Shown here one piece after another: positions 2,839 through 36,376 of a stretch of 64,000 nucleotides of DNA (positions within the stretch are counted from its first letter, which is position 1; each line of letters opens with the position of its first letter). The translations under genes were made by a program, and so were the position numbers. The notes under the pieces were generated by a model. It searched no databases. It saw only the letters and a list, made by a program, of their open reading frames with translations, and had not been told where the DNA came from. The DNA comes from Candidatus Saccharimonadaceae bacterium (GTDB lineage Bacteria > Eisenbacteria > RBG-16-71-46). Location of the stretch: contig DATJGS010000037.1 of assembly GCA_035494735.1 (NCBI GenBank), positions 81,637 through 145,636 of the forward strand, read 5' to 3'.

Positions 2839-2935
2839 CCCGTTGCCCCTTGGCCGGGGCGGCGCGGCTCTCTACAATTGAGCGCGCTCGACCAACTCGC
2901 CGCACGCCACGTCGCTCCTCGTCCTGGACTCCGCC

Positions 2936-5533
2936 ATGCGCCCAAGTCGTGCCCTCCCTCTCGCCCTGCTCGTGGCCCTCGCCTGCCTCGCCGCCGATTC
3001 CGCGACCCGCGTGCGGCTGGCGCCGGCCGAGCGCGACGCGCACGAAGCCGAGGATCCGGGCGACTGGTTCTTCGCGCAGCGCGCGTTCCCGGGCGCGACC
3101 GTGAACCAGGCCGCGTTCGACGCGGCGCGCGGCCAGGCGCTGGCCGATCGCGCGCGGCAGGCGCTGTCGACGAGCGCCACGCCGCTGGTGTGGACGCAGG
3201 CCGGGCCGTACAACATCGGCGGCCGCGTCACCGCGCTCGCCGTGCTGAACGGCGGCGTCACGGCCTACCTGGGCGCGGCCGACGGCGGCGTGTTCAGGTC
3301 CACGAACTCGGGCGTCAACTGGACGCCGATCTTCGACAACGCGTTCGGCACGCCGTCGATCGGCGCCATCACCATCGATCCGACGAACGCGAACACGGTG
3401 TACGTCGGCACCGGTGAAGCGAACGCGTCGGTCGACTCGTACGACGGCAGCGGGATGTATCGCAGCGACGACGCAGGCGCGACCTGGAGCCCGCTCGGGC
3501 TCGCGACGGTCGGCCGCATCGCGCGCATCGCCGTCGACCCGGCGAACTCCAGCCGCATCTTCGTCGCCGCGATGGGCTCCCAGTTCTCGACGGGTTCCAA
3601 CCGCGGCCTGTACCGCAGCGAGAACGGCGGCGCGACGTGGAGCCGCGTGCTGTTCGTGAGCGACAGCACGGGCGCGGGCGACGTCGTCGTGAACCCCGTC
3701 CATCCGGAGACGCTGTTCTGCGCGACGTGGGAGCGCGTGCGCCACCAGAACTACCGGCGCGCGTTCGGCCCCGAATGCGGCATCTGGCGCAGCGCGGACC
3801 ACGGCGACACGTGGACGCTGCTGTCGAGCGGCCTGCCCGCGCCCAGCGACAACGTGGGGCGCATCGCGCTCGGCATCGCGGCGTCGCGCCCGTCCACGAT
3901 CTACGCGCAGATCGGCACCGGCGTCGCCGGCGGCTACAAGGGGCTCGGCCTGTACCGCAGCCTCGACGCCGGCCAGACCTGGGCGCGGCGCGACGGCGCG
4001 GGCACCACAAGCACGTTCAACAACGCGTTCGGCGGCTTCTGCTGGTACTTCGGCTCGATGGGCGTCGACCCGACGAACCCGGATCGCATCTTCTGCCTCG
4101 GCCAGTCGCTGCTGCGCTCGCTCGACGGCGGCGCCACGTACGCGACCGTCACCGGCGCGGCGCACGTCGACGAGCACGCGATCTGGATCGACCCCACGAA
4201 CGTGAACCGCGTGTTCCTGGGAAACGACGGCGGGTTCTTCTCGTCCACGAACGGCGGCAGCGTCTGGACCAAGTCCGTCGACCTGCCGATCTCCCAGTTC
4301 TACGCGTGCGACGTCGACGCGTCGAACCTGGCGCGGACCATGGGCGGCACGCAGGACAACAACTCCATCCAGACGTTCGGCTCGCCGACCGGCTGGACCG
4401 TGATGCTGGGCGGCGACGGCTTCTACGCGCTCGTCGACCCCACGAACCCGAATATCGTGTTCGCCGAGTCCCAGTACTGCAACGGCGGAGCCGGCCCGGC
4501 CAAGGCCACGGACGGCGGCGTGTTCTTCGGCACGCCCACCGGCTTCGCGCCCAGCGACCGCTACAACTGGTGCACGCCGATCGTGCTAAATCCTCTGAAC
4601 CACAACGTCGTGCTGACCGGCAGCCAGCGCGTGTACCGCAGCACCGACAACGGCGACAACTACTCGACCCTGGGCGGCGACCTGACCACGAATCCCGTCT
4701 CCCAGCTGGGCTTCGGCACGATCTCCACGATCGACGTCTCGCGGGCCGACACCAGCCTGTACTACGTCGGCACCGACGACGGCCGGGTGTGGCGCTCGCC
4801 GGACCGCGGCTTCTCGTGGGCCGAGATCACCGCCGGGCTGCCGCTGCGCTCGATCACGCGCGTCACGGCGGACCGCACAGACCCGAACGTCGTCTACGTG
4901 ACGCTGTCCGGCTTCGGCAGCGACGAGCACGCGCCGCACGTGTTCCGCAGCGCGGATCGGGGTACGAACTGGACCTCGATCGCCGGCAACCTGCCGGACG
5001 CGCCGGCCAACGATCTCGTGGTCGACACGCTCGACCCGAACACGCTGTACCTCGGCACCGACGTCGGGGTCTACGCGACGCGCAACCTCGGGGCCGGCTG
5101 GTTCCCGCTCGGGACAGGATTGCCCATCCAGGCGGTTTTCGATCTCGCGCTGCACGCCGGCACGCACACGCTGGTGGTCGGCACGCACGGTCGCTCGCTG
5201 TGGAAGCTGGACCTCGGCGGCCTGCCGCTCGCGGTTCCACCCGCGCCGTCCGCGGCGCGTCTCGCGCTGTCGTTCCCTTCGCCGAATCCGAGTCGCGCGA
5301 GCGCTCGCTTCACGCTCGAAGTGTCGCGTGCCATGTCCGTGGAGGTAGCGGTGTTCGACGCGTCGGGTCGGCGCGTGGCGACACTGTTCCGAGGCGCATG
5401 TGGAGCGGGCCAAATCACTCTCGCCTGGGACGGCCGCGACGCCGCGGGACGTCGCGCGAGCGCGGGCGCGTACTGGGTGCGCGCGGCGAGCGCCGAGGGT
5501 GTCGCGACGCGCTCGCTCGTCCGACTCGAGTGA
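2936..5533 (+). CDS. Secreted BNR/Asp-box repeat beta-propeller protein (sialidase/GH74/sortilin-like) with a T9SS-type C-terminal sorting domain.
   Basis: Signal peptide, about 10 SxDxGxTW Asp-box repeats, and a C-terminal FlgD-Ig/Por-secretion-tail pattern (PNP...D.SGRRV...G.Y). Confidence 0.85.
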   Translation: MRPSRALPLALLVALACLAADSATRVRLAPAERDAHEAEDPGDWFFAQRAFPGATVNQAAFDAARGQALADRARQALSTSATPLVWTQAGPYNIGGRVTALAVLNGGVTAYLGAADGGVFRSTNSGVNWTPIFDNAFGTPSIGAITIDPTNANTVYVGTGEANASVDSYDGSGMYRSDDAGATWSPLGLATVGRIARIAVDPANSSRIFVAAMGSQFSTGSNRGLYRSENGGATWSRVLFVSDSTGAGDVVVNPVHPETLFCATWERVRHQNYRRAFGPECGIWRSADHGDTWTLLSSGLPAPSDNVGRIALGIAASRPSTIYAQIGTGVAGGYKGLGLYRSLDAGQTWARRDGAGTTSTFNNAFGGFCWYFGSMGVDPTNPDRIFCLGQSLLRSLDGGATYATVTGAAHVDEHAIWIDPTNVNRVFLGNDGGFFSSTNGGSVWTKSVDLPISQFYACDVDASNLARTMGGTQDNNSIQTFGSPTGWTVMLGGDGFYALVDPTNPNIVFAESQYCNGGAGPAKATDGGVFFGTPTGFAPSDRYNWCTPIVLNPLNHNVVLTGSQRVYRSTDNGDNYSTLGGDLTTNPVSQLGFGTISTIDVSRADTSLYYVGTDDGRVWRSPDRGFSWAEITAGLPLRSITRVTADRTDPNVVYVTLSGFGSDEHAPHVFRSADRGTNWTSIAGNLPDAPANDLVVDTLDPNTLYLGTDVGVYATRNLGAGWFPLGTGLPIQAVFDLALHAGTHTLVVGTHGRSLWKLDLGGLPLAVPPAPSAARLALSFPSPNPSRASARFTLEVSRAMSVEVAVFDASGRRVATLFRGACGAGQITLAWDGRDAAGRRASAGAYWVRAASAEGVATRSLVRLE

Positions 5534-11292: not shown

Positions 11293-12147
11293 CTAGCGGG
11301 CGGCCACCCAGTCCGTGCCGCTGCGCGCGAAGCGCTCGATCAGGGACGCGAGCGCGTCCGGTCGATCGAGCATGATGAAGTGCCCGCAGCCCTCGAGGCG
11401 GGTCGGCGTCAGCCGCGGCACGCGCGCGTAGCCCAGCGATTCGGCGACGGCCGGCCACGCTTCGTCCTTGGCCCACGACCTCTCGGCGAGCACGGCGAGC
11501 ACCGGCATCCGGAGCCGCGCCGCGTCGCGCGACAGATCGGCGCTGAGCGCGAGGCGGATCCACGGCTTCACGTTCGCCGGGTCCAGTTCGCGCACCTCCT
11601 GATACAGCGCGAGCCCCTGCAGCGAGTCGCGTCCGAACGCGCCGTACGCGGTGCGCAGCACGTGATCGTAGTCGCCATCGAGTGCGCCGAGCAGCGCCGT
11701 GCGTCCGGCCGCGTCGACCTGCGGGCGCAGCGCGGTCTCGACCAGCACCAGGCACTTGACGCGCTCCGGATGATCGATGGCTTCCGCGGTGGCCACGAGG
11801 CCGCCGAGCGAGTGGCCGACGAGCACGACCGGGCCGCCGTCGATGCGCGCGAGCGCGCGGTCCAGCGCGGCCTCGGCGCGATCGAGGGAAAACGGATCGG
11901 GCATCTCGCTTTCGCCGTGGCCGGGCAGATCCACGAGCGTCACGCGCCAATGCGCGGCGAGCCGCCGCGCCATGGGCAGCCAGTGCGTGCTGCGGCTGCC
12001 GAGCCCGTGCACGAGCACGAGCGACGGGCCGCGGCCGAACGCATGGTAGGCCGATGGCGCGACCGGCCGCGCGCCCGAGAACGCGAGGGCGAGCGTGGCC
12101 ACGGCGGCAATCAACGTGAGCGAGAGCCAGAAGCGGGTTCGGTTCAT
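11293..12147 (-). CDS. Alpha/beta hydrolase-fold protein with a signal peptide.
   Basis: HGLG ... GHSLGG nucleophile elbow; start taken at MNRTRFWLSL. Confidence 0.8.
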   Translation of the reverse strand: MNRTRFWLSLTLIAAVATLALAFSGARPVAPSAYHAFGRGPSLVLVHGLGSRSTHWLPMARRLAAHWRVTLVDLPGHGESEMPDPFSLDRAEAALDRALARIDGGPVVLVGHSLGGLVATAEAIDHPERVKCLVLVETALRPQVDAAGRTALLGALDGDYDHVLRTAYGAFGRDSLQGLALYQEVRELDPANVKPWIRLALSADLSRDAARLRMPVLAVLAERSWAKDEAWPAVAESLGYARVPRLTPTRLEGCGHFIMLDRPDALASLIERFARSGTDWVAAR

Positions 12148-12240
12148 GGGCGGTTCGACGCGCGTGACGACGCGCATCGCCGCGGGGTTATCGGCAGGAG
12201 CGCGCCGGCGCTGAACCGGAACGACGGGCGCGATCCGGGC

Positions 12241-14203: not shown

Positions 14204-15169
14204 TCATCGGCGCGCGAGCGCCTGCTGTGCGAACTGGGAGATCACGGTCGCGAGCGTGTCCGGCTGATCGGACGCGATGAGTCCCGCGGCCTTCGCGATG
14301 TGACGCGTCGTGACGCCGGCCGGGTCGTCCCAGCCCATGGCCTTGCTCACCTCCGGCCAGGTCTTGCCCTCGGGCAGCGCATGATCGGTGAGCACGAGCA
14401 GCATCGGCGTCTTCAGGCCCTTGAGCGAACGGCCGCCGTCCACGCTCAGCAACTCGCGCATGTACGACTTGATCGTGACCTGCGGCACTTGCGAGGCGAC
14501 GGCGTGGATGGCCACGCCCTGCGCCGAGTCGCGGCCCATCTTCATGAACACGAGGCGCAGCACCTGGTCGTAGTTCTGGTCCATGAAGTCGACGAAGTGG
14601 CTCTTCATCTGATCGTCGACCGGAATCGGCGAGCGCAGCGTGACGTCGATCAGCACGAGGCCGCGCTGGTGCTCGGGGTGCATGCTGGCCGCCATGAGCG
14701 CGAGCAGTCCGCCGACGCCCTGCCCAACGACGACCGTGCTCTCCGCGTTCTGCTTCGCGAGCACCAGGTCGAGGGACGCGGCCGCCGCCTCGAGCGAAAA
14801 CGGATCGGGCAACGCGCTCTCGCCGTGCCCCGGCAGGTCCACGAGCACGACGTGATAGTTCGCGAGCAGACGCCGCGCGGCCGGCATCCAGCCCATGCGC
14901 GCCGCGCCCAGACCGTGGACGAGCACGACCGTCGGGCCGTGGCCGAACTCCGTGGTCTTGAGCGCGACGGGCCCCGAGGCGGCGCCGGCCATGCCGGCCA
15001 GCGCCAGCGCGGCGAGCGCGAGCGGCGCGGCGGCGAGCGCGAGCGGCGCGGCGACGCGCGCGAAAAAACGGGCGGCCGGGCGCGCCCGCGGGTGCGGGGC
15101 GGCCGGCGACGAGGATGTCGGTTCAGCGGTCTCGGCGTTCTTCGCGTTCTTCGCGTGCTCGGCGTTCAA
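14204..15169 (-). CDS. Alpha/beta hydrolase-fold protein, paralog of 11293-12147.
   Basis: VLVHGLG...VDLPGHGES...GQGVGG. Start uncertain: TTG 15169 is proposed, and the table ORF extension to 15325 would read through the promoter palindrome. Confidence 0.7.
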   Translation of the reverse strand: MNAEHAKNAKNAETAEPTSSSPAAPHPRARPAARFFARVAAPLALAAAPLALAALALAGMAGAASGPVALKTTEFGHGPTVVLVHGLGAARMGWMPAARRLLANYHVVLVDLPGHGESALPDPFSLEAAAASLDLVLAKQNAESTVVVGQGVGGLLALMAASMHPEHQRGLVLIDVTLRSPIPVDDQMKSHFVDFMDQNYDQVLRLVFMKMGRDSAQGVAIHAVASQVPQVTIKSYMRELLSVDGGRSLKGLKTPMLLVLTDHALPEGKTWPEVSKAMGWDDPAGVTTRHIAKAAGLIASDQPDTLATVISQFAQQALARR

Positions 15170-15213
15170 TGAGTGCCTCCGTGCGGGCGCGATCTTACCC
15201 GCGATCTTTTCGC

Positions 15214-15242
15214 TTGCGAACTGCACGTATGTGCAGTACCGT
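15214..15242 (+). promoter_or_regulatory. Candidate sigma70-type promoter whose 17-nt spacer is filled by a perfect palindrome CTGCAC-GTAT-GTGCAG.
   Basis: -35 TTGCGA, -10 TACCGT, 17-nt spacer. The palindrome matches TGCNC-N4-GNGCA, which I recall as the Fibrobacter-type LexA operator. Confidence 0.5.
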
Positions 15243-15260
15243 GCCTCTCGCCAGGTCCCA

Positions 15261-15512
15261 ATGCGACTCGAAACCCTCGATGAAGCCGTCACCGTTCGCG
15301 CCGACTTCCAGGGCGGCGCCGTCACCCCGCTGGCTTTTCGCCGGCGGGGCCGCGAGCACCGGATCGTGCGGGTGAATGCCCGTTGGATCGACAGGGTGCC
15401 GCGGCATCCTCACTTCTATTTCTCGGTGACGGACGAGAGCGGGGACGTCTATCAGCTGCAGCTGCAGAGCGGCGACCTGGTGTGGTGGCTGGACTCGGTG
15501 ACGCTCGAATGA
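15261..15512 (+). CDS. Small hypothetical protein (83 aa), translationally coupled to the downstream Y-family polymerase.
   Basis: Protein-like composition (W, Y, F, D, E) and an ATGA stop/start overlap with the next gene. Confidence 0.5.
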   Translation: MRLETLDEAVTVRADFQGGAVTPLAFRRRGREHRIVRVNARWIDRVPRHPHFYFSVTDESGDVYQLQLQSGDLVWWLDSVTLE

Positions 15513-16987
15513 CGGGCGTCCCCTCCCTCACCGCGGCGCCGGGTGGAGCGCAACGTGCGCCTCACCCCTCTGCGACGCACAGGACGGCACCCGTCGAAGC
15601 AGAGCCGGGCGCCGCGGTGAAGGACGAAAACTCCGAGAGCGGTGCTGCGACCGACGCCGGTATCGCGGGGATCACCGGACCCGTCGGCGCAGCCCGCTCC
15701 GGAGCTGATGTTCCGGGCCGCCACGTCGGAAGCCCAGCCGCGCCGTCTCTGGCCGAAGCCGCGCCCGCCGCCGAGGCCGCGCGCGAAACCCTCGTGCTGC
15801 ACGTCGACATCGACGCGTTCTTCGCTTCGATCGAGCAGCAGCGCGACCCGCGCCTGGCCGGGCGGCCGGTCATCGTCGGCGCCGGCGTCATCGCGTCGTG
15901 CTCGTACGAGGCGCGTGCGTTCGGCTTGAAGGCCGGCATGCCGCTGTCCGAGGCCAGGCGCCTGTGCCCGAAGGCCGTCATCGTGGACGGCCACGCCCAG
16001 GTCTATCGCTGTTTCGCCGAGCGCATCTTCGAGCGCTGCCGCCAGATCGCGCCCGCGGTCGAGACGTACCTCGACGAGGCGTACTGCGACCTCTCCGGCA
16101 CGGAGCGCCTGCACGGCGACCCGCTCGCCGCCGTGGCCGCGCTCAAGCGCGACATCCGCGAGTCGACCGGCCTCGGCGTGACGTGCGGGCTCGGGCCGAA
16201 TCGCATGCTCGCGAAACTGATCGGCAAGACCGTGAAGCCCGACGGCCTCGCGCGCATCGCGGCCGTGGACGCCGAGGACTTCCTGACGGCGCGCCCGATC
16301 GAGCAGCTGGCCGGCGTCGGCCACGCGCACGCGCGCACGTTGCGCTCGATGAACCTGCACACCATCGGCGACCTGCGCGCGCTGCCGGTCGCCGCGCTGG
16401 AAGCGCTGTTCGGCGCGCCCGGACGGCAGCTCTTCCAGCGCTGCCGCGGTTTCGACACCATCGCGGTCAGCGAGCGCGAGGTGCCGGTCTCGATCTCGCG
16501 CGAGACCTCGTTCCACCGCGACACCGCCGAGCGCACGGAGATCGAAGGCATGCTCGAATACCTGGCCTCGCGCGCGTGCCGCGCGGCGCGCGACCTGGGG
16601 CTGCGCGCCCGCACCGTGGCGCTGCGCCTCCGCTACTCGGACGGCGAATGCCTCGAGCGCGCGCGTTCGCTCGGCATGCCGAGCGACGCCGATCCGGCCG
16701 TGGTCGACCTGGCGCGCGCGCTGCTGCAGCGCCTGTTCACGCGGCGCGTCGCGCTGCACGCGGTCGGGATGACGCTGTCCAGCTTCACGCGCACCGGCGT
16801 CGAGCAGGGCTCGCTGTTCGACGAGCCCGAAGCCGGCCGCCAGGCCGCGCTGTACCGCGCGTTCGACGGCGTGCGCGAGGCGTACGGCCACGGCGTGCTG
16901 GTCTCGGGACGCGCGCTGCACCTGAAAGGGCGGCTCGAAGAGGATCGCCATGGCTTCGTGCTGCGCACGCCGTCGCTGACCCGTTAG
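15509..16987 (+). CDS. dinB: Y-family DNA polymerase, DinB/Pol IV-like, catalytic carboxylates present.
   Basis: LHVDIDAFFASIEQ and YLDEAYCDL motifs. The first 95 codons or so are A/G/P-rich with lower GC3, so the true start may be GTG 15794. Confidence 0.85.
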   Translation: MTGVPSLTAAPGGAQRAPHPSATHRTAPVEAEPGAAVKDENSESGAATDAGIAGITGPVGAARSGADVPGRHVGSPAAPSLAEAAPAAEAARETLVLHVDIDAFFASIEQQRDPRLAGRPVIVGAGVIASCSYEARAFGLKAGMPLSEARRLCPKAVIVDGHAQVYRCFAERIFERCRQIAPAVETYLDEAYCDLSGTERLHGDPLAAVAALKRDIRESTGLGVTCGLGPNRMLAKLIGKTVKPDGLARIAAVDAEDFLTARPIEQLAGVGHAHARTLRSMNLHTIGDLRALPVAALEALFGAPGRQLFQRCRGFDTIAVSEREVPVSISRETSFHRDTAERTEIEGMLEYLASRACRAARDLGLRARTVALRLRYSDGECLERARSLGMPSDADPAVVDLARALLQRLFTRRVALHAVGMTLSSFTRTGVEQGSLFDEPEAGRQAALYRAFDGVREAYGHGVLVSGRALHLKGRLEEDRHGFVLRTPSLTR

Positions 16988-17042: not shown

Positions 17043-17405
17043 ATGCCCGATCCCACGCTGCTCGGACTGCGCACCGTCGTCTACCGCACGCCCGACCTCG
17101 CGCGCGGCAAGGAGTGGTACGGCTCCCTGCTCGGCGTCGCGCCGTACTTCGACCAGCCGTTCTACGTCGGCTTCAACGTCGGCGGCTTCGAGCTGGGACT
17201 GCTGCCCGACGACGACGGCATGGCGGTCACGTATTGGGGCGTCGCCAAGATGTCGGCGGCGTGGCCGCGGCTGCTGGAACTCGGCGCGACCCCGGTCACG
17301 GCGCCCCAGGACGTGGGCGACGGCATCCTCGTGGCCAGCGCGCGCGACCCGTTCGGGAACCTGATCGGGCTCATCGAGAACCCGCACTACCCGAACACGG
17401 CGTAG
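17043..17405 (+). CDS. VOC/glyoxalase-bleomycin resistance family protein.
   Basis: 120 aa with the typical VOC-fold sequence pattern. Confidence 0.7.
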   Translation: MPDPTLLGLRTVVYRTPDLARGKEWYGSLLGVAPYFDQPFYVGFNVGGFELGLLPDDDGMAVTYWGVAKMSAAWPRLLELGATPVTAPQDVGDGILVASARDPFGNLIGLIENPHYPNTA

Positions 17406-17451: not shown

Positions 17452-18201
17452 ATGGTGTCTCCCGTCCGCAGGCCCCAACCGCCTCCACCGCCCGATCCGC
17501 TGCTGGTGCGGCTGTTCACGCAGCCGCTGTCCAGCCAGCAGGTCGAACGCCGTGCGCGCCAGACGCTGCGCCCGGCGGTGCGCGTGCTGCTCGTGATGGT
17601 GCCGGTGGCGCTGCTCGCCGGGCTCGGCTACGCCGCGTTCGACCTGTGGTCGCAGCTGCCGCCCACGCTCGTGCCGCGCCATCGCCCGGAAGCCCTGTGC
17701 TTCGCGCTGGCGGCGGCCGATCCGGTGACCGGCGATCATTTCCAGCCGCCCATGCACATCGAGCCGAGCGCGGCGCTGATGCGCTCGCGTTTCACGCCGA
17801 GCACGCCGGCCGGCGCGGCGCTGCGCGAGGTCATGCACCTCGACGAGAGCATGGTGCTGAGCGAGGCGTCGCGTCACGTCGGCGACTTCGACGTGTCCGT
17901 GCTGTGGCTGTACCTGCCGCCGGGCGCCGGCCCGGGCGACGGCTCGGACGACGCGCGCCACTGGCTCGTGCTGTGCTGGATGGAGGGCGGCGATCTCGCG
18001 GTGTGCAACTTCCGCTTCGCCGGCGAAGGCCGTCAGCTCGACGCCGACGAGCACCAGTGGGGCCAGCGCCTCGTCAATCGCCTGCTCGTGCCCGCGAACT
18101 TCGAAGCCGGCGTGCTCCCGACCGTGCGCCTGCGCATGCCGCGCGGCACGACCATGCCGGCGTTCGGCCCGCCCGCGGCGCAGTCGATCGCCGCGCAGTA
18201 A
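17452..18201 (+). CDS. Hypothetical membrane-anchored protein.
   Basis: One TM helix and a non-repetitive composition, unlike the overlapping ORFs. Confidence 0.4.
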   Translation: MVSPVRRPQPPPPPDPLLVRLFTQPLSSQQVERRARQTLRPAVRVLLVMVPVALLAGLGYAAFDLWSQLPPTLVPRHRPEALCFALAAADPVTGDHFQPPMHIEPSAALMRSRFTPSTPAGAALREVMHLDESMVLSEASRHVGDFDVSVLWLYLPPGAGPGDGSDDARHWLVLCWMEGGDLAVCNFRFAGEGRQLDADEHQWGQRLVNRLLVPANFEAGVLPTVRLRMPRGTTMPAFGPPAAQSIAAQ

Positions 18202-18823: not shown

Positions 18824-21800
18824 ATGACGCACACGCTCGCTCCCGCGTTCGTGCCGCTGCGCGTGCGCTCGCACGGCTCGTTGCTCGAGGGCACCGCCTC
18901 ACCCGAGCAGCTCGTCCGGACCGCGCTCGAGCGCGGCGCGCACGCGCTCGCGCTGACCGACCGCAACAACCTCTACCTCGCGATCCGCTTCTGGCAGGCG
19001 GCGCACGCCGAGGGCCTCGTGCCGCTGCCCGGCGCCGAGCTGGTGACGGCCGACGCGGCGGCCTTGCTGCTGCCGCTCGACCGCCGCGGCTGGGCGCGGC
19101 TGTGCGCGCTGCTCACCGCGCGGCATCTGGACCCGGCGTTCGATCTGATCGCGGCGCTCGGCGAAGGCGCGGCCGGGCTCCACGTGATCGTCGAGACGCC
19201 GGCGCTCGCGGCTTCGCTGCTGGCGGCCGGCGTCCCGGCGGCGCGCGCGACGGGCGCGGGAGCCTCCGGCGGGCTGTGGCTCGGCGTGCGCGGGCTTTCT
19301 TTCGAGCGCCCGCGCCTGGCCGAGCGGCTCGACGCGGCGCGCGCGCTCGGCGTGCCGGCGGTCGCGACCGGCGATTGCGTGATGCTGAATCCGCTCGACC
19401 ACGACGCGCACGCCATCGCCATGACCGCGGCGCGCGGCGAGCTGCTCGAGCGCATGCCGCCCGGCGCGTTCGCGACGCGCGACGCGTGGCTCGCGTCCCC
19501 CGCGGAGTGGACGCGCCGCGTGCGCGCGCTCTGCACGGGCGCCGGGCGGCCCGAGGCCGCGGCCGTGCTGCTCGCGCACAACGTCGAGCTGGCGGCGCGC
19601 TGCCGGCTCGAGCTGGAGCTGGGCACGCCGATCTTCCCGCGGCATCCCGAAGTGCAGGGCGCCGAGGGCCTGGCGCGCCTCCAGCGCCTGTGCGACGACG
19701 GCGTGCGCTGGCGGTATGGCGGGGGGCGGGCGACGGCGGGCGCGCACGGGCCGGCGGCGTACGCGGCGCCGGCGCCCCCCGCGTCGCCCGGCGCGCGCGC
19801 CACGACCGTCCGCGCCGCGGGCGCGCGCCTCGCGGAAGAGCTGTCGATGATCGCGCGCATGGGCTTCACCGATTACTTCCTGCTCGTCGCCGAGATCGTC
19901 GGCTTCGCGCGCGCGCGCGGCATCCCGACCGTGGGCCGCGGCTCGGGCGCAGGCTCGATCGTGGCGTACGTGCTCGGCATCACGAACGTCGACCCGCTGC
20001 GCTACAACCTGTACTTCGAACGCTTCCTCAATCCGTCGCGGCGCGACTGCCCGGATCTCGACATCGATCTGTGCTGGAAGCGCCGCGACGAAGTGATCGC
20101 GCACGTGTACGACGCGTACGGGCACGATCGCGTCGCCATGATCTCGACGCACGCCACGCTGGGCGCGCGCTCGGCGTTCCGCGAGACCGCGAAGGCGCTC
20201 GGCGTGCCGAACGCGCGCGTGAACGTGCTGGCGAAGCGCGTGCCGCGCGATCTCGAGGCGCCGTACGCGCCGAAGCTCGCCGCGTTCGCGGGCGGGCGCG
20301 ACGTGGATTGGCGCGAGCCGGTGCTGGCGCGCGCGCTGGCGCTGGCCGAGAAGCTGTCGGGCGCGCCGCGGCACCTGTCCGTGCACGCGGGCGGACTCGT
20401 GATCGCGGACCGGCCGCTCACCCACTACGTGCCGCTCGAGCGTGCGGCCAAGAACGTGGTCGTGACGCAGTTCGAGATGCGCGCGATCGAGGCGATCGGC
20501 CTGGTCAAGATGGACCTGCTCGGCAACCGCGCGCTGACCGAGATCGGCGACTGCGCGAGCCTCGTCACGCGGCGCGGCGGTCCGGTGATCGACGTCGACG
20601 CGATCCCCGACGACGACCCCGCGACCGCGGCGCGCGTCGGCGCGGGCGCGACGCTGAACTGCTTCCAGCTCGAGTCTCCGGCCATGCGCCACCTGCTGCG
20701 CATGATCGCGGCGCGCAACCTCGACGACACGATCGCCGCGGTCGCGCTCGTGCGCCCCGGGCCCGCCGGCTCACCGGGCGGCGAAGGGCGCGATCGCAAC
20801 ACGAAGGAGACGTTCTGCCGCCGCCAGCGCGGCCTCGAGCCCTCCGTGTTCGCGCACCCGCGCCTCGAGCCCGTGTTGCGCGAGACGCACGGGCTGATGC
20901 TGTACGAAGAAGACGTCATGCGCGTCGCCGCCGCGCTCACGCCGCTGACGCTGGCCGAGGGCGACGACCTGCGCCGCGCCATCGCCCACGCGCGCGACGA
21001 CGAGGAGTTCCGCGCGCTCGAGCGCGGCTTCGTCACGCAGGCCCGGCGCGAAGGCGTCGACGATGCGAGCGCCCACGCCGTGTGGCGCGAGCTGACGCGC
21101 TTCGCCGCGTACGCGTTCTGCCGCGCGCACGCCGCCGGCTACGGGCGCCTCGGCTGGCAGGCCGCGTACCTGAAGACGCACTTCCCCGCCGAATACGCGG
21201 TGTCGATCCTCAACCATCACGCCGGCATGTATCCGACGTGGGTGCACGTCGAGGACCTGCGCCGCCAGGGCGCGTGTTTCCTGCCGCCGTGCGCGGCGCG
21301 CTCGACGTGGGACTCGGCGTACGAAGCGGGCGCCGTACGCGTCGGGCTCGGGCGCGTGCTCGGGCTGTCGGAGGCGACGGGCGCGCGCATCGCCGGCGAG
21401 CGCGCGGCGCGGCCGTTCGCCAGCCTCGCCGACTTCGCGGACCGCGCGCGGCCCAGCTCCGACGAACTCGAGACGCTGATCCGCGCGGGCGCGCTCGACT
21501 TCGCGGGGCGCTCGCGGCCCGCGCTGTTGCTGGAAGCGCGCGTGGCCGCAGGGCGCGGCGGCGCGGCCGGAGGCGCGCGGGCGCTGGTACGCGCGCCGGC
21601 GCTGGCCGCGAACGACGGCACACCCGTGCTGCCGACGGCGGTCGCCACGGTGCTGACGCCCGAGCTGCCCGAGTTCTCGCTCGAACAGCGCGTGCGCGGC
21701 GAGCTGGAGGCGCTCGGCCTATGGTTCAGCGCGCATCCGCTCGACGTGATGCTGCCGCCGGGTGCGCGCGACGGCACGGTGCGCGCGGCGGCGTTGCCTA

Positions 21801-22105
21801 GGCACGCCGGGCGCCGCGTCGCGGTCGTCGGCATGCCGTGCGCGCAGCGCGGCGTCGAGACGCGCAGCGGCGACATGATGCTGTTCCTCACCGTCGCCGA
21901 CGAGAGCGGGCTCGTCGAATGCGCGCTGTTCCCCGACACGTATCGCGCGTGCGCCGCGGCGACGCGCGGCGAGATCGTGCGCGTGGAGGGTCGCGTCGAC
22001 GAAACGCTGGATTCCGTGACGCTGGGCGCGGAGCGCGTGGAAATGCTGTCCGCGTCGCGCGACACGCCGCACGGCCGCCAGGGACGCGGCCAACATCACC
22101 ATTGA
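18824..22105 (+). CDS. dnaE2: Error-prone DNA polymerase III alpha-type subunit.
   Basis: About 1093 aa; PHP domain, polymerase core and OB fold; shorter than DnaE1 and lacking its C-terminal region. Confidence 0.85.
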   Translation: MTHTLAPAFVPLRVRSHGSLLEGTASPEQLVRTALERGAHALALTDRNNLYLAIRFWQAAHAEGLVPLPGAELVTADAAALLLPLDRRGWARLCALLTARHLDPAFDLIAALGEGAAGLHVIVETPALAASLLAAGVPAARATGAGASGGLWLGVRGLSFERPRLAERLDAARALGVPAVATGDCVMLNPLDHDAHAIAMTAARGELLERMPPGAFATRDAWLASPAEWTRRVRALCTGAGRPEAAAVLLAHNVELAARCRLELELGTPIFPRHPEVQGAEGLARLQRLCDDGVRWRYGGGRATAGAHGPAAYAAPAPPASPGARATTVRAAGARLAEELSMIARMGFTDYFLLVAEIVGFARARGIPTVGRGSGAGSIVAYVLGITNVDPLRYNLYFERFLNPSRRDCPDLDIDLCWKRRDEVIAHVYDAYGHDRVAMISTHATLGARSAFRETAKALGVPNARVNVLAKRVPRDLEAPYAPKLAAFAGGRDVDWREPVLARALALAEKLSGAPRHLSVHAGGLVIADRPLTHYVPLERAAKNVVVTQFEMRAIEAIGLVKMDLLGNRALTEIGDCASLVTRRGGPVIDVDAIPDDDPATAARVGAGATLNCFQLESPAMRHLLRMIAARNLDDTIAAVALVRPGPAGSPGGEGRDRNTKETFCRRQRGLEPSVFAHPRLEPVLRETHGLMLYEEDVMRVAAALTPLTLAEGDDLRRAIAHARDDEEFRALERGFVTQARREGVDDASAHAVWRELTRFAAYAFCRAHAAGYGRLGWQAAYLKTHFPAEYAVSILNHHAGMYPTWVHVEDLRRQGACFLPPCAARSTWDSAYEAGAVRVGLGRVLGLSEATGARIAGERAARPFASLADFADRARPSSDELETLIRAGALDFAGRSRPALLLEARVAAGRGGAAGGARALVRAPALAANDGTPVLPTAVATVLTPELPEFSLEQRVRGELEALGLWFSAHPLDVMLPPGARDGTVRAAALPRHAGRRVAVVGMPCAQRGVETRSGDMMLFLTVADESGLVECALFPDTYRACAAATRGEIVRVEGRVDETLDSVTLGAERVEMLSASRDTPHGRQGRGQHHH

Positions 22106-24047: not shown

Positions 24048-25901
24048 TCAGCGCACGAGCACGGCCTTGCGCATGACGCTGTGTCCCGACTGGCTGAGCC
24101 GGATCACGTACACGCCGGCGCGCGAGATGGCACGCTCGTCGAGCCGCATGACGTGCCGCCCGGCACCGAGATCGCCGACCGCGCTCGACCACACGCGGCG
24201 CCCGGCCGCGTCCCACACGCTCAGTTCGGCCGGCGCGTCGCTCGGCAGCGAGAACGCGACGAGGCCGGAGCGCTCCATCGGATTCGGGCTCGGCGCGTCG
24301 AGCGCGAGTCCGAGGCCGCTCGGCACGTCGACCCACGCCTCGCCCGCGTACGCCGTCGCGCCGCGGTCGGCGATCGCGAGGCGATAGCCGTAGCGCGCGC
24401 CGGGCGTGACGTCGAGATCCTCGTACGTCACCGAGCCCGTGCCCGAAACCGCGCGGGCCGCGACCTCGGTCCACGCGCCGGACGGCGTGCGGCGCTCGAT
24501 CGAAACCATGCGCGACGCGAGCGTCGCGCCATACCATTCCAGCGCCACGCGCTCGGGAGTCGCGTCGGCCGAAACCAGCGACGCGAGCGTGGCCACGATG
24601 ACTTCGCAGCCGGCCGCGGGATCGGGCGCGGTCATGCCGCGGTTCACGAAGTCGCGGAGACCGTCCGCCTCGCAGCGCAGGTGAACGGTCGACGAGATGC
24701 GGTTGAAGCCCTGCGCCATGAAAATCGCCGAGAGCACGTCCTGCTCGCCGCCCGGGGCGAGCGTCACCGGCCCGCTCGACACGAGCATGCGGCGGTCCGA
24801 CGGGTTCGTGTCGAGCCAGCCGGTTCCCGCCTCGGGAGCGCCCGACACCATGAAGCGGGTGGGAAGCCCGTCCGTGGGATTGATGATCGGCGTGCCGTCC
24901 TGGTTGAGGCCGCGGATGTAGTTCTCGGTCTGGCTCGCCGTCGCCGGATCAGTCCCGTTGACGTAGCGGGTGAACGCGGTCATCGGCAGCGGCGGCCCGG
25001 AAGGCGGCTGGGCGCCGCGCAGCAGCTCGAAGCCGATGGCGGGCGGCGCCGAGCCGTACACGGCGTCGTCGTCGTCACCGTTGTACGCGTAGCCGAGCGA
25101 CCGCGTCGTGTCGCAACCGATGAGGTCGTCAACGTAGTCGCCGAGGTCGGGGTCCGACCACAGTCCGACGTACATCGAGTCGAGCGTGCTCGAGCCCCTG
25201 TTGAAGATGTGCCAACGCACGAACACCGTCTGTGCGAGCGCGCCGGGATGGTTGAACGCGAATACGGTCTCCTGCACCTCGACGCCGAGCTGCGCGGTCT
25301 GGCCCGCGTTGTTCGTATGGAACGTCGGGTCGCCGTCGTTGAACACCGCCCACAGCATCTGGTCGCCGGTGATGCTCAGCGAGCCATCTCCCAGCACGAC
25401 GACCGGCGGCGCGCCGTACGGCACGGCGCCCGCGTCGTAGTCGGCGAGCGCGGCGTCGCGCGTCGCGGCGTCGGAGTAGACACGCAGCAGCGAGTAGACA
25501 CGGTAGGCGGGATTCGCCGGGTTGTCGGGAAGGCCGAAGGGCATCGCTCCCGGCGCGAACTCGTCGCTGTACTCCGAGACCGCGACACGCGTCTGGCCGT
25601 CCACACGCGCGGCGAGCCAAAGGCCGGCCGTGTAGACCGCCGTCTTGCCGCTGCCCTTCGGGAACTCGAGCCCGGCGGTGCCGATCGGGCGATTGTTCGC
25701 GAGGCAGCCGGTGTTCGTCACGAACATGCTGATGTCGTTCACGTCGATCACGCCCGAATAATCGAAGTCCTGAGCGCGATTCGGCGCTGGGAGGCGCATG
25801 TCGGCCGAGAGCGCGCTCGGGCCGAACGTGGCCAGCAGCAGGGCGAATGAAATCGGGAACGCGGCGGCGAGCAGGCGGCGCGAAAACGAGGAGAGCGTCA
25901 T
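24048..25901 (-). CDS. Secreted hypothetical protein with a T9SS-type C-terminal sorting domain.
   Basis: Signal peptide, an Ig-like region, and a C-terminal SPNP...DAAGRRV...GVYVIRL tail. Confidence 0.75.
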   Translation of the reverse strand: MTLSSFSRRLLAAAFPISFALLLATFGPSALSADMRLPAPNRAQDFDYSGVIDVNDISMFVTNTGCLANNRPIGTAGLEFPKGSGKTAVYTAGLWLAARVDGQTRVAVSEYSDEFAPGAMPFGLPDNPANPAYRVYSLLRVYSDAATRDAALADYDAGAVPYGAPPVVVLGDGSLSITGDQMLWAVFNDGDPTFHTNNAGQTAQLGVEVQETVFAFNHPGALAQTVFVRWHIFNRGSSTLDSMYVGLWSDPDLGDYVDDLIGCDTTRSLGYAYNGDDDDAVYGSAPPAIGFELLRGAQPPSGPPLPMTAFTRYVNGTDPATASQTENYIRGLNQDGTPIINPTDGLPTRFMVSGAPEAGTGWLDTNPSDRRMLVSSGPVTLAPGGEQDVLSAIFMAQGFNRISSTVHLRCEADGLRDFVNRGMTAPDPAAGCEVIVATLASLVSADATPERVALEWYGATLASRMVSIERRTPSGAWTEVAARAVSGTGSVTYEDLDVTPGARYGYRLAIADRGATAYAGEAWVDVPSGLGLALDAPSPNPMERSGLVAFSLPSDAPAELSVWDAAGRRVWSSAVGDLGAGRHVMRLDERAISRAGVYVIRLSQSGHSVMRKAVLVR

Positions 25902-26085
25902 GGCGGCCTCGAAGGAGTCGGCGCGCTCGCGGCGCTGGGTGCGCGGCCTCACGCACGACTTGCCGGGAATGATAGCCCGACCCGTGCGCGAAGCGCTGCC
26001 TCAATCCTGCCCCGGACCGGCCAATCCTGGGCACGTCGGCCTGGACTCGCGCGGGCCGCGCGACCCCTTGCGAGGAGCGAACCCC

Positions 26086-30650: not shown

Positions 30651-32213
30651 TCACTCGATGCGCAGCAACCGCACCGTCGACGTCGCGCGCCCGGCGCTCA
30701 GCCGCACCAGGTAGACGCCGGCCGGGACGTGCGCCCCGCGCTCGTCGGCGCCGTCCCACGTCAGACGCTCTGCGCCCACCGCGAAGCGCACGTCGGCCAG
30801 CGTGCGCACCCGCCGCCCCTGCGTATCGAAGATCTCGACGCGCGCCGGCCCGGGCTCGCGCAGCGCGAACGAAACCTCCGTAGGCCCGGCGCTCGGATTC
30901 GGCGTGACGCGGAGCGCGAAGTTGCGCGGCGTCGGCTCGACCGCGTTCGGCGGCCCGGTGTAGCGAATGCGCCCGAACGCCCCGGTCGCGCCGCCGAAGC
31001 CGTCGTCGAACTGGCGCAGCCAGTACAGGCTGCCGTCGGGGCCGATCTGGTAGTCGCATTGGCTGTACATGCCGGTCATCCAGTTCACCGTATCGGGCTG
31101 TCCCGGCACATCCGCCGGCGCGACCCACGTGCCGCCGACCTTCTGCGCGCAGCGCAAGTAGCCGCCGTAGTAATCGCCGTAGAACAGAATCCCCTCGTAT
31201 TCATTCGGCCAGTTCGCGAGGCCGCCCACGGCGCCGCGGTGCACGCCGGCCGTGATGACGGCCTGGCTGCTGCCGTCGTGCGGGATGACGACGATCGGCG
31301 AGTCGAACGTCTGCGAGCCGCCGCCGCCCGGCTCCGGGCACTGCCCGACCGGCTCGACCGTCACGCCCTCGCGCCACGGCCAGCCCTCGTTGTCCCCGGC
31401 GGACACCTCGTCGACCTCCTCGAACGAGAAGTCGCCGGGGTCGGCGACGTACAGATTCTGGGTCACGCGATCGATCACGAATCGCCACGGATTGCGCAGG
31501 CCGAGCGCGAACACCAGGCGCGTCGTGCTGTCGCTCGACGCGAATGGATTGTCGGCGGGCGTGATCTGCGCGCGGAAGGCGCTGCCCGCGCCCGGCGGCA
31601 GGTTGCGCACGTCGAGCCGCAGGATCTTGCCCTTGAGTTGCGTCAGGTCCTGCGCCGCGCAACGGTCGAGGTCTTCCCCCACGGCCGCGTAGAGCATGCC
31701 ATCGAGCCCGAAACGCAGGCACCCGGCGTTGTGGCTGTCCGAGTTGTCCGGGATGTTGCCGATGATCACGTACGGCGAGCCGAGCACGAGGCTCTCTCCG
31801 AGCGGATTCGCGAGGTCGCCGCTGGCCGTGTAACGCACGATGATGATGAAGCCGCTCGTGCTCGTGTAGTCGAGATACACGTAGGGGCGCTGCGGCCACG
31901 CCGGATCGACCGCGACTCCCTGCAGCCCGCGCTCGCCGCTCGTCCCGGACGTGTTGAGCCCCGGCACGGTCAGCACCGGGTCTGTGGCAGCCACATGCGT
32001 GCCGACGATGAGTCGCACGCGCCCGGTCACCTGCTCCGTGAACAGCACGCGCCCGTCGGGCAGGAACGCGAAGCTGTTCGGCTGGGTGAGAGAGGGCACC
32101 AGCACTTCGGCTGCGAAGTTCGCGGGGACGACCGGATTGGTGGCGGCGGCGCGCGGGACGAGCACAAAGGCGAAGGCGGCCAGCAGCGGCGCCAGGCGGA
32201 GCGGACGCGTCAT
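30651..32213 (-). CDS. PQQ-dependent sugar dehydrogenase (glucose/sorbosone dehydrogenase family) with a T9SS-type C-terminal domain.
   Basis: GSDH beta-propeller motifs and a C-terminal TPNPSAGP...DTQGRRV...GVYLVRL tail. Confidence 0.8.
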   Translation of the reverse strand: MTRPLRLAPLLAAFAFVLVPRAAATNPVVPANFAAEVLVPSLTQPNSFAFLPDGRVLFTEQVTGRVRLIVGTHVAATDPVLTVPGLNTSGTSGERGLQGVAVDPAWPQRPYVYLDYTSTSGFIIIVRYTASGDLANPLGESLVLGSPYVIIGNIPDNSDSHNAGCLRFGLDGMLYAAVGEDLDRCAAQDLTQLKGKILRLDVRNLPPGAGSAFRAQITPADNPFASSDSTTRLVFALGLRNPWRFVIDRVTQNLYVADPGDFSFEEVDEVSAGDNEGWPWREGVTVEPVGQCPEPGGGGSQTFDSPIVVIPHDGSSQAVITAGVHRGAVGGLANWPNEYEGILFYGDYYGGYLRCAQKVGGTWVAPADVPGQPDTVNWMTGMYSQCDYQIGPDGSLYWLRQFDDGFGGATGAFGRIRYTGPPNAVEPTPRNFALRVTPNPSAGPTEVSFALREPGPARVEIFDTQGRRVRTLADVRFAVGAERLTWDGADERGAHVPAGVYLVRLSAGRATSTVRLLRIE

Positions 32214-32430
32214 GTCGCAACCTTTCGGGCGGCCGATAGAGGGGCGTGATGGAGGTCGGGAAGCCGTCTGCGCGCGTCGGGCGGGCTCGATGATAGCCTA
32301 GGCGGTCATCGACGCGCGAGCGGGCCGCGCGTTCCGCGGACGTGCCTGTGAGCATTTCCGGCGCACGCCGCGACAGAGTGTCGCCCCGAAACGATCCGGC
32401 AGCCGGGCCGCGGGGTCGCCGTCGATCGAA

Positions 32431-33156
32431 TCAGCCGCCGGGGTTTTCGATGGCCTGCCGGAGCCGCTCGCGCGACGGGATGACGAAGCGTCCTTCGCCG
32501 GTCACGAGCAATCCCTCGCGCCCCCAGCGCGACAACACGCGAATCGCGGATTCGACGGTCGTGCCCACCAAGTCGGCCACTTCCTGGCGCGTCAGCGTGA
32601 GCGGGATCTCGACGCCCGCGGGGCCCTCGCGGCCCATGCGCTCGGCCAGCGTGAGGAACAGCTGCGCGATGCGCGTGTCCACGCGCTGGCCGCGCATGTC
32701 CTCGAGCTTGCGCGTCAGCGACACGACGAGCTTCGTGAGTTCGCGAATGATGGCGCGCGCGAACTCCGGATGACGGTCCAGCAGCTCGAAGTAGTCGCGG
32801 CGCGGCAGCACGACCAGCGACACGGGCTCGAGACACACGGCGCTCGCCGGGTACGGCATGTAGTTGTACACCGCGATCGCACCGACCGGCTCGCCCTCGC
32901 CGAACAGCTCGAGGATCACGTCGCCGGCGTCGGCGTGGCGCACGATCTTCACGCGCCCGCGCACGATGACGGTGAGCTGCTCGGCCGGGTCCCCGGCGCG
33001 CCACAGGAAATCGCCGCGCGCGTAGTCGCGGAGGCTCGCGAGACTCGCGATGCGTCCCTGATCGTCGGCCGTCAGCCCGCGGAACATCGGGATGGAGCGG
33101 ACCGCGGCCAGGACCCGTTCGGATCGAGCCTCGGACGTCGCGCGCGGTTCGCTCAT
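32431..33156 (-). CDS. Crp/Fnr-family transcriptional regulator.
   Basis: cNMP-binding-like fold plus a C-terminal HTH. Confidence 0.85.
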   Translation of the reverse strand: MSEPRATSEARSERVLAAVRSIPMFRGLTADDQGRIASLASLRDYARGDFLWRAGDPAEQLTVIVRGRVKIVRHADAGDVILELFGEGEPVGAIAVYNYMPYPASAVCLEPVSLVVLPRRDYFELLDRHPEFARAIIRELTKLVVSLTRKLEDMRGQRVDTRIAQLFLTLAERMGREGPAGVEIPLTLTRQEVADLVGTTVESAIRVLSRWGREGLLVTGEGRFVIPSRERLRQAIENPGG

Positions 33157-33170
33157 ATGATGCGGATCAT
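33157..33170. promoter_or_regulatory. Crp/Fnr-type palindrome ATGATGCGGATCAT.
   Basis: TGAT-N4-ATCA core resembles the TTGAT-N4-ATCAA FNR/Dnr consensus; sits right next to the regulator's start codon. Confidence 0.45.
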
Positions 33171-33255
33171 AGTCCAGTCGGGCCGCGTGCTCCCACCCCG
33201 CTCGACGGCAACGATCTAGGCCGGAATTCCCGACCCCGTGAATCCACGACGCGCG

Positions 33256-33269
33256 TGATGCCGATCATG
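33256..33269. promoter_or_regulatory. Second Crp/Fnr-type palindrome GTGATGCCGATCAT.
   Basis: Centred about 72 bp upstream of the hemerythrin ATG, consistent with class II (-41.5) activation. Confidence 0.5.
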
Positions 33270-33333
33270 CCGCGCGCGGCGCGAACGCACGATCCTCCTG
33301 ATGGACGCGGTACCGACTTTGGAGGAGCGGACG

Positions 33334-33903
33334 ATGCCCAATACGGTGTTCGACAATCTGCGCGACGACCACCTGCGCGTGCTCGGCGACATCTCGGCCG
33401 TGGAACGCGCCCTCGAGCCCGCGAGCGAAGGGCGGCGCGACGCGCGCGGCGGCCGGGCGGTCCGAGCCAAGGCGATTCGGCCGTCGGCGACGTGGGAACC
33501 GCTGCGCCGCCTCGTCGCGTTGCTCGAGCGCCAGTTCGAGACGCACATGGCGGCGGAGGACAAGGTGCTGTTCCCGTCGCTCGAGCGGGCGCTGCCCGAG
33601 ACGAGCGGTGCGCTCCGTGAGCTCGAGGACGAGCACCGCGAACTGCGCGGCATGCTCGCCTCGGTCGCCGGCCTGCTCCAGCGCCGCGCGTCGCAGGCCC
33701 GCGACGAACAACTCGTCGTGCAGGGCCGCGATCTCGTGGACCTGCTGCGCATTCATATTCGCAAGGAAGAAGTCGTCGTGTTCCGCGTGGCCGAGCGACT
33801 GCTCAGCCCCGCGGAGCTGATGGGCGTCGCGCGCCGTCGGACCGGAAACGCGATGACCGAACTCGGCTCCGGTCGCATCCCCTCGAGAGGATCGAACTCA
33901 TGA
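33334..33903 (+). CDS. Hemerythrin-like (HHE cation-binding) domain protein.
   Basis: Four His plus Glu/Asp in H...E spacing; GGAGGAG SD; ATGA overlap with the cytochrome c gene. Confidence 0.7.
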   Translation: MPNTVFDNLRDDHLRVLGDISAVERALEPASEGRRDARGGRAVRAKAIRPSATWEPLRRLVALLERQFETHMAAEDKVLFPSLERALPETSGALRELEDEHRELRGMLASVAGLLQRRASQARDEQLVVQGRDLVDLLRIHIRKEEVVVFRVAERLLSPAELMGVARRRTGNAMTELGSGRIPSRGSNS

Positions 33904-34391
33904 AGACGACTCGACTCGTGACGCTCGCCCTGGCCCTCGCGGCTGTGGCCGCGGTCGCGGGCTGCGGCGGCAAGACGGCGGATTCGGGCACCACCACGGG
34001 CACGACGAACGTGTCGGCCTCGGGCGCGGCCGGCGGCGACGCTCTGCCCGCCGGGCTCGACGAAGGCCCGCGCGCCGCGACGACGCCCATCGACGAGAGC
34101 AAGGTCGAAGCCGGCGAGAAGCTGTTCCAGACGCGCGGCTGTTCGGCCTGCCACGGATTCGGTAAGCGCATCTCCTGCCCCGATCTCGATGGCGTGACGT
34201 CGCGCCGCACCGCGAAGTGGATCGAGACGCAGATCCTGCACCCCGACGTCATGACCAAGCAGGACCCGACCGCTCGCCAGTTGTTCGCGCAGTACGCGCT
34301 GCAGATGCCCAAGCAGGGACTGACGCCGGCGGAGGCCGCCGCCGTGCTCGAGTTCCTGAAGCACAAGAACCACGAATCGGCCGAGAAGTAA
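33900..34391 (+). CDS. Lipoprotein c-type cytochrome.
   Basis: LAGC lipobox and a CSACHG heme-binding motif. Confidence 0.85.
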   Translation: MKTTRLVTLALALAAVAAVAGCGGKTADSGTTTGTTNVSASGAAGGDALPAGLDEGPRAATTPIDESKVEAGEKLFQTRGCSACHGFGKRISCPDLDGVTSRRTAKWIETQILHPDVMTKQDPTARQLFAQYALQMPKQGLTPAEAAAVLEFLKHKNHESAEK

Positions 34392-34410
34392 CCCGGAAAA
34401 GGAGCGCACC

Positions 34411-36324: not shown

Positions 36325-36337
36325 TTCCCGCACGTCG

Positions 36338-36362
36338 GGGGCCGGCCCGAGCGGCCGGCCCC
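36338..36362 (+). other. Perfect 10-bp GC hairpin between nosZ and nosB.
   Basis: GGGGCCGGCC-cgagc-GGCCGGCCCC; no T-tract. Confidence 0.5.
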
Positions 36363-36376
36363 GACGGGAGGCAGTC

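Follow-up and report, generated by a model that had tools for sequence, protein, structure and literature searches.

A predicted LexA operator in the promoter of an ImuA-less imuB-C/polY/dnaE2-type cassette of Candidatus Eisenbacteria

The promoter of a translesion-synthesis cassette in Candidatus Eisenbacteria very probably carries a LexA operator. In a stretch of 64,000 nucleotides from contig DATJGS010000037.1 (hereafter the window), the perfect inverted repeat ACTGCAC-GTAT-GTGCAGT lies between a -35 and a -10 hexamer ahead of a small open reading frame (ORF) that encodes a free-standing C-terminal domain of ImuB (imuB-C). Genes for a Y-family polymerase (polY) and a DnaE2-like C-family polymerase follow. 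We regard the repeat as the operator of this bacterium's LexA with a probability of about 0.8, because the same box in the same geometry heads lexA itself on contigs attributed to the same phylum and also precedes repair genes. In comparative genomics a LexA box is usually argued from autoregulation combined with repair-gene targets, and here the support of this kind is unusually clean.

The arms of the repeat occupy positions 15220-15226 and 15231-15237 with four nucleotides between them (7+4+7) and include the 16-mer core CTGCAC-N4-GTGCAG at 15221-15236 (CTGCACGTATGTGCAG). A sequence-only reading of this DNA had described the 16-mer as a perfect palindrome, present once in 64 kb, that fills the 17-nt spacer of a promoter. 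Both observations hold, and the full repeat extends one base further on either side. The palindrome has a single exact match in the window, with 0.00 expected from 100 dinucleotide shuffles, and is still the only match when one mismatch is allowed (0.23 expected). A weight matrix derived from 72 orthologous sites gives it 34.1 bits, compared with 0.9 for the runner-up position in the window and a maximum of 9.6 in shuffled sequence. The promoter stretch at 15213-15242 reads CTTGCGA-ACTGCACGTATGTGCAGT-ACCGT. The 17 nt between TTGCGA and TACCGT are occupied by an A and the 16-mer, the first base of TACCGT being the last base of the palindrome, which ends 24 nt upstream of the 83-aa ORF.

A scan of one genome per species yielded 74 loci with the cassette, nearly all of them in metagenome-assembled genomes (MAGs) of Eisenbacteria and one in Phycisphaerales. 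Of these, 69 carry CTGCAC-N4-GTGCAG, with no more than one mismatch, in front of the small-ORF ortholog and in the promoter geometry of the window; the distance is mostly about 25-45 bp and, in one sub-clade, 150-350 bp. Every one of 73 orthologous sites has a distinct sequence; their consensus is cTTGcn(n)tACTGCACAnnTGTGCAGTAnnnT or, in short form, TTG..-tACTGCACAnnTGTGCAGTA-nnnT. Arm positions are 91-100% conserved, and the 4-nt centre and the flanks are variable. TTG in the -35 region, together with the first two bases and the last base of TAnnnT, shows 95-97% conservation and keeps a fixed register to the box, the -35 positions being T (95%), then T/G, then G/C. Neither compensatory changes in the arms of these 73 sites nor a T-run after the site was seen. 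The uncompensated arms and a position ahead of the predicted transcription start mark the site as a protein-binding site and not as an RNA hairpin; judged by this conservation, the palindrome is the site of a dimeric DNA-binding protein and not a product of chance. Additional boxes within the Eisenbacteria loci stand ahead of a second polY (L019), of an ORF plus polY (L027), and of dnaE, which has its own box in L048. Some MAGs carry two copies of the imuB-C cassette on separate contigs, each with a box (L011 and L013 in CAVSAC01; L068 and L070 in JBKJOC01).

Since neither lexA nor recA lies near the cassette, metagenome contigs were scanned for ACTGCACNNNNGTGCAGTA. For 40 of the 122 sites found, a gene pointing away from the box starts within 450 bp: imuB-C at 20 sites, lexA at eight, a radical SAM protein of the Rv2578c family at six (L205, L213, L225, L256, L281, L298), a Hel308-like helicase at three (L232, L236, L309), an ImuA-like gene at two (L226, L200) and polY at one. 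A small zinc-ribbon ORF precedes two of the three boxed helicases. The control, 120 sites in viral contigs, gave chance matches only, none of them ahead of such a gene. In an Eisenbacteria contig, a TcmP gene is also found behind the box (L269:11890). The radical SAM, Hel308-like helicase, ImuA-like and TcmP genes are candidate members of the regulon. A box of the form ACTGCACATATGTGCAGT was also observed just ahead of a transposase-like ORF (…ATYEPRDPSRTVLYTVIADHLETFLASLDA…) at L244:172 and L246:2079, on contigs of 58-63% GC; this ORF may belong to an SOS-controlled mobile element.

The lexA promoters share the geometry of the cassette promoter. In L318-L320, labelled Eisenbacteria by NCBI, the promoter reads CTTGACAG-CTGCACAAATGTGCAG-TATCGT and lies 32 bp before the ATG, the box being placed between TTGACA and TATCGT (TTGACAg-CTGCACAAATGTGCAG-TATCGT). 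The lexA gene of L317, which carries the same label, has a box with one mismatch, and the same boxed promoter precedes lexA in L315, L289 and L325-L327, the last three on contigs of 0.7-3.1 Mb. Altogether, boxed lexA promoters of identical geometry were found in at least 13 independent loci. The protein of L318 passes the NCBIfam equivalog for LexA (187 bits, cutoff 111) and has the AAG cleavage site, the GDSM serine and the VKR lysine. A search with the LexA of L315 returned close relatives (P0187, P0208) under the NCBI name 'transcriptional repressor LexA [Candidatus Eisenbacteria bacterium]'. A search with an N-terminal LexA fragment (L220) returned only 20 short or fragmentary proteins of 67-143 aa and L316, an unrelated protein with a LexA DNA-binding domain and no box.

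On Eisenbacteria contigs the boxed lexA heads an operon with a 98-aa DUF6504 protein and polY. In its fuller form the operon consists of lexA, imuB-C (98 aa), polY, DUF72, a DEAD helicase of the HRQ1/MZB type and an RNaseH-like/PolB-exo protein (L317, L318, L320, L325-L327, L315), with an optional ORF of 386 or 411 aa in L315 and L317. A tyrosine integrase adjoins the operon in three loci (L318, L320, L327), and L315 contains a truncated second lexA with the same promoter.

Several observations weigh against the assignment of the palindrome to LexA. A tblastn search detected no lexA or recA in the window or up to 6 kb from any of the 74 cassette loci; its queries were the LexA and RecA proteins of E. 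coli and B. subtilis, an Eisenbacteria LexA and two ImuA proteins. The link between the boxed LexA and this genome rests on the taxonomic labels of MAG contigs. The lexA contigs are less GC-rich (62-68%) than the cassette loci, whose median is 72%. Not one of the 122 sites from the metagenome scan precedes recA; uvrA and ruvAB were not searched for. In the window, the weight matrix finds no second box and none ahead of dnaE. Finally, a scan of 14900-15600 for E. coli-consensus promoters calls no promoter, because TACCGT matches only three of six positions. Taken from the window alone the promoter assignment would be weak, and its support comes from the conservation described above.

Because recA sites are missing from the scan, which did not extend to uvrA, the LexA in question may be global or cassette-centred. 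In an unlikely alternative, the box is bound by a second LexA devoted to such cassettes, like LexA2 of Pseudomonas putida or Xanthomonas, and not by the global SOS repressor, so that the unit would be LexA-controlled outside the general SOS regulon. Every boxed lexA found heads its own lexA-imuB-C-polY-DUF72-helicase operon, and the neighbouring integrases, the truncated duplicate, the lower GC of these loci and the missing recA sites all fit a repressor of this kind. Against it, the box also stands ahead of the unlinked radical SAM, Hel308-like helicase, ImuA-like and TcmP genes and ahead of the lexA-less cassette of the window, and thus the regulon is not limited to one operon. The same lexA operon moreover resides within the contigs of 0.7-3.1 Mb, which are presumably chromosomal, and a second type of lexA was not seen, though none was searched for.

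Far less probable is a dimeric regulator other than LexA that controls repair genes. Nothing speaks for it directly, apart from the fact that lexA is not linked to the cassette in the window, and no other regulator gene recurs beside the box, while boxed lexA promoters of one and the same geometry in so many independent loci are what LexA autoregulation classically looks like. A chance palindrome, or a DNA or RNA hairpin such as the terminator of the divergent gene, is effectively refuted by the phylogenetic footprint: the window alone offers a single instance, and 20 of 100 shuffles yield a match with at most one mismatch, but an exact match is not expected at all, the motif is kept in the cassette loci and in unrelated promoters, and its arms remain invariant without compensation or T-run between a conserved -35 and -10.

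The reading as an operator of the Eisenbacteria LexA is in keeping with known LexA boxes. The E. coli consensus is TACTG(TA)5CAGTA (PMC9578287), likewise a palindromic dimer site placed over promoters ahead of lexA and translesion-polymerase genes. The 20-bp Eisenbacteria consensus TACTGCACAnnTGTGCAGTA shares its TACTG-N10-CAGTA frame and differs in the inner bases, which are CTGC-AC in Eisenbacteria and CTGT-AT in E. coli. The sequence-only reading, whose proposal of a LexA operator is supported by the lexA promoters, compared the motif with the operator of Fibrobacter succinogenes. That operator is reportedly TGCNC-N4-GTGCA (Mazon et al. 2004, Microbiology 150:3783), or TGCNC-N4-GNGCA in the form given by the reading, and TGCAC-GTAT-GTGCA of the window would fit this pattern.

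The small ORF is a free-standing ImuB C-terminal domain, because its family matches DUF6504, the C-terminal module of ImuB. The window protein itself scores 19.2 bits with DUF6504, under the cutoff of 24.2, and 22 of 24 homologs match the domain, which corresponds to residues 430-501 in the canonical ImuB of an imuA-imuB-dnaE2 cassette. Homologs with 73-92% identity fall into more than 200 clusters, the named ones being Candidatus Eisenbacteria, and the protein is also homologous to the lexA-linked 98-aa protein (E = 1e-11). Its AlphaFold2 model is all-beta and without a solved relative; an all-beta fold for ImuB-C was predicted by Timinskas and Venclovas in 2019 (PMC6511836).

The polymerase encoded next appears to be active. 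The sequence-only reading had already noticed the succession of an 83-aa ORF and a Y-family polymerase with intact catalytic carboxylates, and structural comparison agrees: among solved structures the protein matches the active Pol IV 7yll best (E = 1.9e-50), with the DxD...E and DE motifs aligned, and all 56 of 56 homologs share D5, D7, E14, D94 and E95 as well as the steric-gate F10. A clamp motif, QG[AS]LF, and a 50-aa C-terminal tail are conserved as well. The tail contains AALYRAFDxVRxxYGHGVLVSG, and the first half of the tail aligns weakly with residues 6-28 of E. coli RecA (hhalign P = 0.0085, at a probability of only 4.7%). DUF4113 was not reported by hmmscan on PolY. PolY shares fold and catalytic motifs with DinB/Pol IV, but it remains below every NCBIfam cutoff for Pol IV equivalogs (best NF002751, 278 vs 371 bits) and is distinguished by the C-terminal extension and an obligatory ImuB-C partner gene. 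The stop of the 83-aa ORF overlaps an ATG at 15509 in the polymerase frame, and a start there would add a low-complexity extension of 95 aa. The true start is probably GTG 15794, because the 95 codons of 15509-15793 lack codon periodicity (GC at the three codon positions 0.79/0.71/0.74, compared with 0.74/0.50/0.95 in the polymerase core). On near-identical contigs the polymerase is annotated with 492, 456 and 443 aa, and the spacer between imuB-C and polY ranges from 9 nt to several kb among the loci.

The third core gene begins 1.8 kb downstream of polY. Its product ends directly past the OB fold, and a C-family polymerase without the tau-binding C-terminal domain has the DnaE2 architecture (PMC3919608). 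It scores below both the DnaE1 and the DnaE2 cutoffs of NCBIfam, and these scores do not separate the two. In most loci dnaE is syntenic 3′ of polY, and in L070-L073 it is directly adjacent; in the window an opposite-strand gene stands between them. The conserved order is divergent hydrolase, box and promoter, imuB-C, polY, an optional VOC gene, an optional gene for the 249-aa protein, an optional opposite-strand thioesterase, and dnaE. The VOC and 249-aa genes each turn up between polY and dnaE in some 20 of the orthologous loci, a recurrence that suggests an accessory role in the cassette. In the loci that diverge most, and in that of Phycisphaerales, imuB-C, polY and dnaE are contiguous. 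A tblastn search with two ImuA proteins and RecA found no ImuA in the window or in the 74 loci. By gene content, the unit is an ImuA-less variant of the imuA-imuB-dnaE2 cassette (Table 1). The translesion-synthesis unit of the sequence-only reading is upheld as a set of translesion and mutagenesis genes, refined from a mere DinB gene to an imuB-C/polY/dnaE2 cassette. The closest plasmid relative of the window DnaE, with 39% identity, is encoded on the Desulfosarcina ovata plasmid NZ_AP021877.1 (L321) in an operon lexA-DUF72-polY-dnaE that lacks ImuB-C; the region upstream of this operon is AT-rich and has no box.

Table 1. Promoter elements and genes of the cassette region, in window positions.
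Feature	Position	Strand	Evidence
Alpha/beta-hydrolase gene, divergent	14204-15169	-	Abhydrolase_1 and Abhydrolase_6 matches; shares a 91-bp intergenic region with the box promoter
-35 hexamer TTGCGA	15214-15219	+	Direct reading; TTG kept at a fixed distance from the box in 73 orthologous promoters
Predicted LexA operator ACTGCAC-GTAT-GTGCAGT	15220-15237		Perfect repeat, unique in the window, conserved, shared with lexA promoters
-10 hexamer TACCGT	15237-15242	+	T1, A2 and T6 95-97% conserved over 73 sites
Leader motif CGCCAGGTCC	15250-15259	+	Precedes the start codon; conserved in most orthologous loci
imuB-C, 83-aa free-standing ImuB C-terminal domain protein (DUF6504)	15261-15512	+	DUF6504 matches, homologs, model
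polY, Y-family DNA polymerase, core from GTG 15794	15794-16987	+	IMS, IMS_HHH_1 and IMS_C domains; intact catalytic residues
VOC/glyoxalase-bleomycin-resistance family gene	17043-17405	+	Pfam Glyoxalase, E = 9e-7
Gene for 249-aa protein	17452-18201	+	No Pfam or NCBIfam match
dnaE2-like C-family polymerase gene	18824-22105	+	PHP, Pol3 core, HhH and OB domains; no C-terminal tau-binding domain

Cassettes with a standalone ImuB-C and PolY, with or without DnaE2, were outlined as an ImuA-less class by Timinskas and Venclovas in 2019 (PMC6511836). The window cassette agrees with this class in the position of imuB-C directly ahead of an apparently active PolY with a clamp motif, in the lack of a nearby imuA and in the predicted LexA control. 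In the class, PolY carries a motif of DUF4113 type like the RecA N-terminus in a C-terminal extension, to which the tail of the window PolY may bear a weak resemblance. Furthermore, Eisenbacteria-labelled contigs also carry a lexA-imuB-C-polY operon like that of Geobacter. In contrast to that class, the window cassette has no lexA of its own, and the VOC and 249-aa genes are inserted between polY and dnaE. The examples in the text of PMC6511836 are Kyrpidia, with ImuB-C, DnaE2 and an inactive PolY, and Geobacter, with ImuB-C, an active PolY and no DnaE2. The combination of ImuB-C, active PolY and a DnaE2-like polymerase falls within the generic description given there and is not among these examples. 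Canonical ImuABC has in common with the window cassette a DnaE without the C-terminal domain, a Y-family partner, the DUF6504/ImuB-C module and predicted LexA control. It differs in that the window cassette lacks ImuA, its PolY keeps the catalytic carboxylates whereas ImuB is catalytically dead, and its ImuB-C is a separate polypeptide.

From these parts a regulatory scheme can be proposed. A LexA dimer on ACTGCAC-N4-GTGCAGT would cover the spacer and the first bases of the -10 region and thereby close the promoter to RNA polymerase by occlusion. After DNA damage, activated RecA would trigger the self-cleavage of LexA, and the promoter would fire. Provided that the genes are co-transcribed, the transcript would give rise to a free ImuB-C protein and a catalytically intact PolY; the dnaE2 gene of the window might respond to the same LexA. 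PolY could reach stalled forks through its clamp motif and might work with RecA instead of ImuA, a possibility raised for this kind of variant (PMC6511836). ImuB-C has been put forward as the DnaE2-binding module (PMC6511836), and cassettes of this kind are known to be LexA-regulated (PMC6511836; PMC3919608). ImuB-C, PolY and the DnaE2-like polymerase without its C-terminal domain would then assemble into an ImuA-less translesion or mutagenesis complex. Regulation of this type would be the classical SOS scheme, well known in kind and found in a new phylum; it is ordinary biology and leaves the general picture of SOS regulation unchanged.

Timinskas and Venclovas postulated an evolutionary intermediate in which DnaE2 had been recruited while ImuB-C was still unfused and the active site still intact (PMC6511836). 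Only as a tentative suggestion do we propose that the cassette is a working three-part mutasome without ImuA, composed of free ImuB-C, active PolY and DnaE2, which would represent this intermediate toward ImuB, and that its LexA box TACTGCACAnnTGTGCAGTA is a natural hybrid of the E. coli frame and an N4-spaced TGCAC/GTGCA core. If true, the hybrid box would be informative on the drift of LexA specificity between phyla. The combination of free ImuB-C, an active Y-family polymerase and DnaE2 in a widespread and very conserved cassette, with more than 200 protein clusters, bears on the evolution of ImuB-type mutasomes and offers a simpler system for asking what ImuB-C does.

In the literature searched, we found no paper that names both Eisenbacteria and LexA and no SOS system described for the phylum. 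The present data provide the first sequence-level definition of a probable LexA box for Candidatus Eisenbacteria, together with a partial regulon in which lexA, imuB-C, polY, dnaE2, the Rv2578c-type radical SAM protein and helicases were seen. To our knowledge, this is a soil and sediment phylum with no cultured member.

Between box and imuB-C, the motif CGCCAGGTCC sits 1-5 nt 5′ of the start codon across Eisenbacteria loci and recurs in a different, independent type of imuB-C/polY cassette (L262, L202). It may be a weak AGGT Shine-Dalgarno sequence or something more specific. In one sub-clade of Eisenbacteria, the box promoter and imuB-C are separated by a leader of about 95 nt, TGCGCTTGGATGGCGGCCG...GTCCCGCACGCGCCAGGCGC, which is highly conserved there and absent from the window. 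It is located at L007:1292-1420, with equivalents in L009, L010, L014, L017, L021, L022, L024, L025, L027-L029, L033 and L035, and could be closed by a helix of GCGCTTGG/CCAGGCGC. Consensus folding of this leader revealed no covariation, and no Rfam family was assigned to it (26-bit match vs a gathering score of 181).

On the other side of the box, the divergent hydrolase gene starts with a TTG at 15169 preceded by GGAGG and is present upstream in most orthologous loci. Its product looks secreted, and a second hydrolase gene often lies behind it (11293-12240 in the window, minus strand). A possible minus-strand promoter, TTCGCA-17-TAAGAT, abuts the box, and co-regulation of the hydrolase by the box is conceivable.

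The window, with a GC content of 70.7%, comes from Candidatus Eisenbacteria according to its homologs. NCBI places Eisenbacteria among the candidate phyla, and the group is usually assigned to the Fibrobacteres-Chlorobi-Bacteroidetes (FCB) superphylum. Four sorting tails of the type IX secretion system (T9SS) had been reported in the window; at least two of them could be verified as type A tails, those of the proteins encoded at 24048-26000 and 30651-32297 (both minus strand), and a third, at 2882-5533, is borderline. In the rest of the window no recognisable SOS gene was noted. A nitrous-oxide reductase cluster at 34360-39359 comprises a nos propeller protein, NosD and an ABC ATPase, and upstream of it are genes for a Crp-family regulator (32431-33264, minus strand) and a hemerythrin (33259-33903).

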